A program made the translations under genes and the position numbers. This document shows, one piece after another, positions 115 through 980 of a stretch of 64,000 nt of DNA (within the stretch, counting starts at the first letter, position 1; every line of letters begins with the position of its first letter). The notes under the pieces were generated by a model. That model was not told where the DNA came from. It ran no database searches and saw nothing but the letters and a program-made list of their open reading frames with translations. The DNA comes from Eledone cirrhosa. Its lineage: Eukaryota. The stretch spans positions 17,918,001 through 17,982,000 of the forward strand of contig OZ024753.1 in assembly GCA_964016885.1 (NCBI GenBank), read 5' to 3'.

Positions 115-282
115 AAAGAATTAGTATATCTACCAACACATATATACAGATGCATACCTATGCTAGCAAATATATAGGTTTTGTCTTAGTAACTTTGTGG
201 TTCAATGCAAGGGGATGCAGAACAATAATATAAAAGACGTAAAATATGAAAATTATAAAAATTAACTTACTTACTAAAATTT

Positions 283-368
283 CAATCCAACTAATTAGTT
301 TCTGAAAGGGAATAAACATGGTATCCGAATGGACAACATGGAGAAATCCTTTCGTCATCAGGTAAGTC
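283..368 (-). ncRNA. Type I hammerhead ribozyme motif
   Basis: Minus strand: CUGAUGA (355-361), stem II gaaagg/cctttc, GAAA, palindromic stem III AACUAAUUAGUU. Confidence 0.7.
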
Positions 369-844
369 TATTCTCAGCTATGTTCCCTGGCAATGCGTGG
401 ACACAGGGAACTTATACAAAAATAATTCAGTGGATGGAAAAAAGCAAAGCGTGGACTAAGTTCCAAGACATTGAAAAAATCATTGCCTACTTGGTCGGTG
501 GCAAATTCATAAAAATCAATCAGTGAGGAGTGGTGTGTTAAGAAGACAGCAGCCGGACCATTACTATGAACTATAGCAGCAGTTTTGGCAAATTTTTGCT
601 CAACAAAATAATTTGGAAATAATTATAAAGAATTAGTATATCTACCAACATATATATACATATCCATACCTATGCTAGTAAATATATAGGTTTGATTCTT
701 TTGAATTTGCCACCGACCAAGTAGGCAGTGATTTTTTTCAATGTCTTGGAACTTAGTCCACGCTTTGCTTTTGTCCATCCACTGAATTATTTTTGTATAA
801 GTTGCCCGTGTCCACGCATTGCCTGGGAACTTAGCTGAGAATAG

Positions 845-929
845 ACTTTCCTGATGACGAAAGGATTTCTCCATGTTGTCCATTCGGAAACCATGTTTAT
901 TCCCTTTCAGAAACTAATTAGTTGGAGTG
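845..929 (+). ncRNA. Type I hammerhead ribozyme motif
   Basis: CUGAUGA 851-857, stem II gaaagg/cctttc, GAAA 910-913, stem III C-UAAUUA-G, GUU triplet 921-923, stem I uuuc/ggag. Confidence 0.75.
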
Positions 930-980
930 AAAATTTAGTAAGTAAGTTAATTTTTATAATTTTCTTCTTTTACGCCTTTC

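Follow-up and report, generated by a model that had tools for sequence, protein, structure and literature searches.

Dispersed non-coding repeats, probably retrozymes, with two fixed 3' ends and the insertion signature of Penelope-like elements in Eledone cirrhosa

Results

Two inverted, partly tandem insertions within (TA)n tracts

The window analyzed here is a 64,000-nt stretch of the Eledone cirrhosa genome (contig OZ024753.1). Close to its left end, embedded in a compound (TA)n microsatellite, lies an element (116-980) consisting of one full monomer, a fragment of a second and an inverted arm (Table 1). An earlier note on this DNA had described a homologous monomer of ~512 bp with a head-to-tail junction (627/628) and an inversion (~692/693), and this description proved accurate; the arms overlap by ~4 nt at the inversion junction and differ by 16 substitutions in 291 aligned nt. 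At 512 nt, the monomer of this copy falls ~20 nt short of its 527-535-nt relatives; among the best 40 candidates scored for the element, full-length matches are at 84-92%. Two stem I pairs of the main-arm hammerhead are broken in this copy, and cleavage of the inverted-arm hammerhead is predicted after position 923. In retrozymes, target-site duplications exceed 4 bp when present; here the (TA)n flanks would mask any such duplication.

A sister insertion, a long array inverted at 24993/24994, occupies positions 19168-26269. Identity between its monomers and element 116-980 is ~74% over 343 nt and 72% over 115 nt, and neither insertion contains an ORF of at least 250 aa. The array belongs to a subfamily that is ~99% identical across loci, and similar arrays are common in the genome. 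In alignments, its monomers differ only by homopolymer lengths and one base, and these variants recur with a higher-order periodicity (m1=m4=m6, m0=m3, m2=m5), so local duplication or an assembly effect may set the array length. A second array (locus L043) shows higher-order periodicity too. The argument that the diverged sister insertion speaks against an assembly artefact thus holds for the ends and the kind of the array, because many similar arrays exist, but not for its length.

The junctions reported earlier are correct at all four ends (slashes mark the boundary with the flank): tata/aagaattag (116) and tata/gataatttaa (19168) on the left, and tacgcctttc/ata (980) and tacgtccttt/ata (~26265) on the right. 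Read along the ribozyme strand, each of the two insertions terminates in a 3' end on both sides. One, which we term T1, is the end of a 112-116-nt tail; the other, T2, lies ~112-116 nt upstream, just before the tail. The tail is present in every internal monomer and is absent only at the T2 end. An assignment of the insertions to the pLTR/tail type of Penelope-like elements (PLEs; PMC8557442, PMC11167929) stands, but the accompanying claim of a tail only at the true 3' end does not: every monomer has it, segment 628-692 is itself tail, and both outer ends are 3'.

Table 1. Coordinates of the element near the left end of the window and of the sister array
Feature	Position	Strand	Remarks
Left flank	1-115	.	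(TA)n compound microsatellite with GGACT units; extends upstream beyond the window
T1 junction	115/116		Junction with (TA)n
Full monomer, main arm	116-627 (512 nt)	minus (ribozyme sense)	No ORF
Tail between T2 and T1	116-231 (116 nt)	minus	GUUC-UGCA hairpin and long hairpin stopping ~8 nt before T1
Type I hammerhead, main arm	284-367	minus	Core 354-361; stem II 348-353/304-309
GAAA and palindromic stem III, main arm	289-303	minus	Predicted cut after 289 (GUU), from hammerhead consensus
Second monomer, 5'-truncated	628-692 (65 nt)	minus	Tail sequence only; head-to-tail to the first, junction 627/628
Inverted arm	693-980 (288 nt)	plus	Ends at T2 (CTTTC/ATAT); tail absent
Type I hammerhead, inverted arm	845-928	plus	Stem I 845-850/924-928; core 851-858
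Type I hammerhead, inverted arm, continued		plus	Stem II 859-864/903-908; extra A at 909; GAAA and stem III up to 923
Right flank	981-1395	.	(TA)n/GGACT compound repeat, as on the left
Array, main arm	19168-24993	minus	~10.3 monomers of 561-568 nt as assembled; ends at T1 in (TA)n
Array, inverted arm	24994-26269	plus	~2.3 monomers; ends at T2 in (TA)n

Covariation in the hammerhead ribozyme and the tail

The ribozyme has the type I core CUGANGA...GAAA...UH, three helices and an open stem I, with a predicted GUU cut triplet. Stem II does not directly adjoin the core; an extra C follows A9 and an extra A precedes G12. Rfam scans of the window returned nothing at gathering thresholds, and only sub-threshold chance matches between 100 and 1000. 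From 96 distinct sequences (280 instances) clustered into 51 variants, we aligned 32 chosen by eye for diversity. The named hammerhead structure is paired in 95.1% of 575 cells, compared with 85.6% after shuffling (0 of 500 shuffles reached this value), and its covariation score, a statistic that ignores relatedness among variants, is 0.333 versus 0.147 for shuffled alignments and at most 0.099 for slid partners. These values support selection on RNA structure in the family, as the earlier note had proposed from the exchange of stem II between the two insertions (GAAAGG/CCTTTC versus GCAATG/CATTGC), which indeed involves two double-sided swaps. Across the 32 variants, double-sided changes affect two of six stem II pairs and all four pairs of a distal hairpin, in counts that likewise disregard relatedness; the stem II pair 25-73 occurs as four pair types. 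Stem I has no double-sided change in this alignment, and the invariance of stem III is partly a product of the search pattern, which fixed it.

Relaxing the pattern recovered only more copies of the same ribozyme family: 31 stem III non-U variants genome-wide, scattered over stem II types and subfamilies, and 36 variants with a base other than A at the extra-A position (versus 8,538 standard matches), also scattered over subfamilies. The claim that the core segments are invariant holds for the two window insertions, both of which carry CUGAUGAC, but not for the family, in which one subfamily has CUGACGAC (9 versus 172 instances). This subfamily, with CUGACGA in its core, was found among loci chosen by their tail; the change is at N7, the free core position and the site of the commonest core change found.

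The predicted fold of the consensus favors pairing between the core and stem III, a non-catalytic arrangement. A 12-nt palindrome is predicted to be fully paired between two molecules (-10.8 kcal/mol), not within one, which fits dimer-dependent cleavage. In all five monomers tested as circles, the ribozyme sense is predicted to fold better than the antisense (z of -3.4 to -5.6 versus -1.7 to -3.0). The tail has a predicted fold comprising a GUUC-UGCA hairpin and a long hairpin that finishes ~8 nt before T1, and 3 of its 32 predicted pairs show a double-sided change (18 of 23 variants). A GTAAGT, a possible splice donor, lies 3' of the ribozyme, with no conserved acceptor evident by eye.

A dispersed family without coding capacity

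The genome is 3.0 Gb in size and rich in (TA)n. Exact matches to the ribozyme pattern number 8,538 genome-wide, as against none for the reversed pattern, confirming that the motif in element 116-980 is not due to chance; the tail pattern has 9,936 matches and its control none. The family consists of non-coding tandem repeats with a monomer of 520-565 nt and a type I hammerhead in each unit, an organization expected of non-LTR retrozymes. Fifteen representatives of 45 distinct ribozyme-to-ribozyme monomers could be aligned end to end (522-559 nt); they differ by many short indels, and no ORF was seen in them. All 18 loci picked by the tail motif without a standard ribozyme match are non-coding copies as well. 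Copies are dispersed on many contigs, with 5' truncation of variable extent and 3' ends that are fixed and embedded in (TA)n. Protein-coding capacity is absent, as expected of a non-LTR retrozyme, a class that also has no LTR/PBS/PPT organization, and the telomerase-like reverse transcriptase (RT) and GIY-YIG endonuclease ORF of an autonomous PLE is missing from the family. The insertions nonetheless display the features of PLE-mobilized sequences, namely partial tandems, an inverted 5'-truncated arm, a tail at one end and microsatellite targets.

At three loci (L023, G000:C11:2868518-2871986; L092; L186), adjacent monomers are mosaic or derive from different subfamilies, and one monomer of L186 has no ribozyme segment. 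In the older array L023, the mosaic monomers hint at template switching or a mixed source array.

Pairing of T1 and T2 ends

We classified insertion ends by their position on the monomer profile, as T1 at position 520 or above of 529 and as T2 at 408-420. The first sample, drawn from the first pattern matches on contig C1, comprised 65 insertions, one of which was dropped at a locus edge. Thirty-nine were inverted (34 T1+T2, 5 non-standard) and 25 direct (14 ending at T1, 11 at T2). Loci selected by similarity (54, 23 dropped) yielded 17 inverted (14 T1+T2, 3 non-standard) and 14 direct insertions; a third set (34, 6 dropped), 14 inverted (11 T1+T2, 3 non-standard) and 14 direct; and a fourth (26, 1 dropped), 14 inverted (13 T1+T2, 1 non-standard) and 11 direct. 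Over all four samples, 72 of 84 inverted insertions were T1+T2, none was T1+T1 or T2+T2, and 12 had an end at neither site. If each end were chosen independently with equal odds, one of each in 72 of 72 would have a probability of 4e-22. The suggestion that both ends are set by mechanism is thereby upheld. In the first sample, T1+T2 insertions had their longer arm on the T1 side in 15 of 34 cases and on the T2 side in the other 19; hence no single end qualifies as the "true" 3' end. Several insertions scored as direct have a short inverted arm under the score cut-off, and the complementary end can be seen by eye.

T1 and T2 each fall on a TATA/ATAT motif, and the TA match to the target spans 3-5 nt at either of them. 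Internal TA tracts of 7-9 nt, present in many subfamilies, almost never serve as 3' ends; a few ends lie at a neighboring ATATA tract (L014, L080). Of 97 terminal T1 sites, 15 carry (CT)n runs of at least four units; such runs are absent from all 93 internal T1 sites and from all 88 terminal T2 sites, 16 of the latter already holding at least two CT/TC units. This distribution suggests stutter at initiation; alternatively, the runs may reflect post-insertion slippage adjoining (TA)n. At terminal T1 of three loci (L194, L100, L059), a (TCTA)n reiteration accompanies the subfamily junction TATC/TATA, in parallel to (CT)n elsewhere. Of 63 5' breakpoints, 4 fall at the ribozyme cut site, where 3.3 are expected; this lack of enrichment gives no sign that cleaved RNA is the template.

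Penelope-like elements in the window

An intact-frame PLE occupies positions 27555-31741 of the window (ORF 28090-31260, minus strand), with a weak RVT_1 match under the cut-off. It has an Asn-rich insert, a CX4CxxC motif before a GIY-YIG-like domain, an inverted pLTR and its own CUGACGA hammerhead-like motif; by the description in PMC8557442 it would be Neptune/Nematis-like. The family is very young: all but one of 150 scored matches show 100% identity across 160 aa. Its tandem unit has a 1218-aa frame, and full 4.15-kb units form tandem arrays on contig C28 near 42.0 Mb. We surveyed the ends of 17 inverted pairs from the list of scored matches together with the window copy. One short and one long end are paired in 17 of these 18 inverted copies, with a tail of 43-58 nt in most, and the remaining copy has the long-end motif in its flank.

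The retrozyme monomer profile has no match at E<=10 in the unit of this PLE. A second PLE family is represented at 2790-6130 (frame 3472-4755, plus strand) by a 5'-truncated copy with an inverted repeat; it has many relatives at 90-98% protein identity, and the retrozyme profile matched none of 30 of its loci. None of the sampled retrozyme insertions runs into a PLE ORF. Among the two PLE families examined and the sampled insertions, we thus found no autonomous element that shares monomer sequence. By age and target only, the intact PLE of the window is a candidate helper of the retrozyme.

Discussion

Proposed mechanism and alternatives

The reading that we consider probable is that the family is a non-autonomous, non-coding non-LTR retrozyme, mobilized in trans by a (TA)n-targeting PLE and primed at two fixed sites in its RNA. 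Tandem copies would be transcribed on the ribozyme strand. The hammerhead, whose stem III has 3 bp and a palindromic loop, is likely to act as a dimer when cutting multimeric RNA, and cleavage may yield circles of 520-565 nt, by analogy with known retrozymes, the covariation speaking to the structure. A PLE RT-endonuclease would cut both strands of a (TA)n tract, the preferred target observed here, and reverse transcription would start at two fixed internal sites bordering the structured tail, one on each side of the break. The fixed ends and their one-of-each pairing are direct observations; priming at them is proposed by analogy with PLE work in vitro. On a template that is either circular or multimeric and uncut, RT would cross the ribozyme site as well as the monomer junctions, and stutter at T1 may sometimes add the (CT)n found there. 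The two cDNAs would then join head-to-head through microhomology or fold-back, giving an inverted T1+T2 insertion, or only one arm would be kept, giving a direct insertion that ends at T1 or T2. Arrays could subsequently grow locally at the DNA level. Several points weigh against this reading: the search of two PLE families and of the sampled insertions for an autonomous element with monomer sequence came up empty, 5' breakpoints show no excess at the ribozyme site, and the ribozyme has a GUU cut triplet, an extra A before G12 and an inactive consensus fold, in a class of which eight of nine predicted members were inactive in vitro (bioRxiv 10.64898/2026.07.22.740005). The in vitro PLE work (PMC11167929) reports priming without target homology and a start site that does not differ between strands, T2 shows no stutter, and the covariation counts disregard relatedness and include no double-sided change in stem I.

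The role of T2 as a priming site rather than a resolution site is likewise inferred from analogy. T1 could instead be the sole priming site, with T2 arising when the endonuclease cuts or resolves the cDNA of the element at a TA-like site, once this cDNA has folded back or its second strand has been made. PMC8557442 ascribes the tail to endonuclease-mediated resolution; stutter is seen only at T1, and its absence at T2 would fit a different origin of that end and weighs against two-site priming; one-of-each pairing would follow naturally; and several inversion junctions are near-symmetric and fold-back-like, with long overlaps (L009, L045, L127). Most junctions are asymmetric, however, the T2 arm exceeds the T1 arm in 19 of 34 insertions, and direct insertions at T2 are about as frequent as at T1 (11 versus 14). 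Moreover, PMC11167929 places both tail boundaries at in vitro RT start sites. On balance, we regard resolution as an unlikely source of T2.

It is quite improbable that the family is satellite DNA spread by DNA-level amplification, its ribozyme an inactive relic. The higher-order periodicity of two arrays, that of the window and L043, indicates DNA-level duplication or an assembly effect, and ribozyme activity of the family is predicted only; yet copies lie on many contigs with variable 5' truncation and fixed 3' ends in (TA)n, compensatory changes set subfamilies apart, and one subfamily is 99% identical across loci. A slightly fainter prospect still is that no enzyme chooses the ends, which would result from microhomology or recombination between TA motifs in the monomer and (TA)n tracts. 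Both junctions do lie at TATA/ATAT motifs and a few ends at the neighboring ATATA tract, but longer TA tracts in the monomer are almost never used as 3' ends, and independent choice predicts that about half of the insertions would be like-ended, against 0 of 72 observed; this explanation is largely refuted. Assembly artefacts, in the form of fold-back chimeras at TA repeats, can be set aside with near certainty despite the inverted structure within simple repeats, given that the arms of 116-980 differ at 16 of 291 sites and that the same two ends recur at dozens of loci from diverged subfamilies.

Returning to trans-mobilization by a PLE, we speculate about a more specific version, which we hold to be possible but doubtful. 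A viroid-sized circular RNA would parasitize the PLE enzyme by structure rather than by shared sequence: an RT dimer would dock on the 112-116-nt tail and prime both target strands at two non-equivalent sites of the circle, with T1 allowing telomerase-like repeated copying of a 2-4-nt template. If this were true, the one-of-each rule would record, in vivo, a coordinated integration by two active sites that is common to PLEs.

Relationship to known retrozymes and Penelope-like elements

Non-LTR retrozymes are an already known class: they were defined, and their circles shown, in PMC7229834, and have been linked to PLEs in a study that describes the mechanism as still to be elucidated (bioRxiv 10.64898/2026.07.22.740005), a study in which eight of nine predicted retrozymes were inactive in vitro. 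Like metazoan members of the class in both sources, the family described here forms non-coding tandems with one type I hammerhead per unit, has low GC and thousands of copies ranging from monomers to multimers, and co-occurs with PLEs. Its monomer of 520-565 nt exceeds the ~170-400 nt of invertebrates in PMC7229834 but lies inside the 51-972-bp range of the bioRxiv study. Fixed termini, inverted arms, (TA)n targeting and a tail are features of this family of which we met no description in the parts of the two sources consulted.

Published PLEs carry a tail of 30-40 bp on one side only, have inverted arms and insert into (TA)n (PMC8557442, PMC3846280). Work in vitro (PMC11167929) showed that a PLE protein, predicted to be a dimer, cuts and extends both target strands, that RT starts at two internal RNA sites with the tail being the sequence between them, and that ribozyme cleavage is not needed. 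Priming there occurred without target homology, with a start site that was alike on both strands, whereas here a short TA match to the target is found at both ends. The family shares with the PLE pLTR/tail arrangement of these three papers the partial tandems, the adjacent inverted 5'-truncated copy, the tail at one end, microsatellite targeting and a hammerhead upstream of the two ends. Unlike PLEs, it has no RT/GIY-YIG ORF, and its tail, at 112-116 nt, is longer than the 30-40 bp of published PLEs (PMC8557442, PMC3846280) and the 43-58 nt of the autonomous family in this genome; it is also non-coding and structured, unlike PLE tails.

The ribozyme resembles PLE-type hammerheads (PMC4209133) in its extra nucleotide between A9 and G10.1, its G10.1-C11.1 pair, a 6-bp stem II, a 5-bp stem I and a small palindromic stem III suited to dimers. 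It departs from them in the extra A between C11.1 and G12, the GUU cut triplet and a ~40-nt loop II with a second covarying hairpin. The family recalls non-autonomous Chlamys elements such as MRC1 (PMC8557442), PLE derivatives with multicopy head-to-tail insertions; these, though, share 3' sequence with an autonomous family, and most Chlamys elements are without canonical hammerheads.

Inverted insertions are also produced by L1 twin priming, in which both target strands provide primers; there the second site is variable and the template linear. In the present family neither site varies, and either arm can hold several monomers.

What is new here is the long structured tail, the strict T1+T2 pairing and the (CT)n expansion confined to terminal T1. 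In the literature searched, with most subscription papers and Repbase outside its scope, we did not find such a pairing statistic, a tail this long or initiation stutter. The link between PLEs and the entry of retrozymes into animal genomes has so far consisted of co-occurrence and pLTR similarity (bioRxiv 10.64898/2026.07.22.740005); the family here itself bears the PLE integration signature. The presence of the one-of-each rule in both a retrozyme and an autonomous PLE argues for coordinated use of the two start sites and constrains steps that the in vitro PLE study left open. Since a retrozyme subfamily and an intact PLE, both very young, coexist in one genome, an in vitro trans-mobilization test is feasible, and a tail that is structured and ~3 times the usual length makes for a cis-element that is easy to dissect.

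Other repeats in the window

A further repeat family, at 26290-27050 (minus strand) and 1390-1800, adjoins the array and element 116-980; its two copies are 81-83% identical. It contains a hammerhead-like motif, CUGAGGAC...CAGAAAC, whose stem II is very long and which likewise has the extra C and A. The extra A before G12 is common to other hammerhead-like families of this genome. Further such cores, from no fewer than three additional families, lie at window positions 8587, 36949, 53460/53510, 41958/41966, 44905 and 35688, some as inverted pairs, and the genome seems rich in such elements. Dispersed repeats of 150-250 nt, present in many copies between 10083 and 56700 (for example at 10083, 15910, 34252, 35110, 38759, 50866, 55256), are probably a SINE. 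Fragmented LINE-like RT frames occupy ~57500-63400 on the minus strand.
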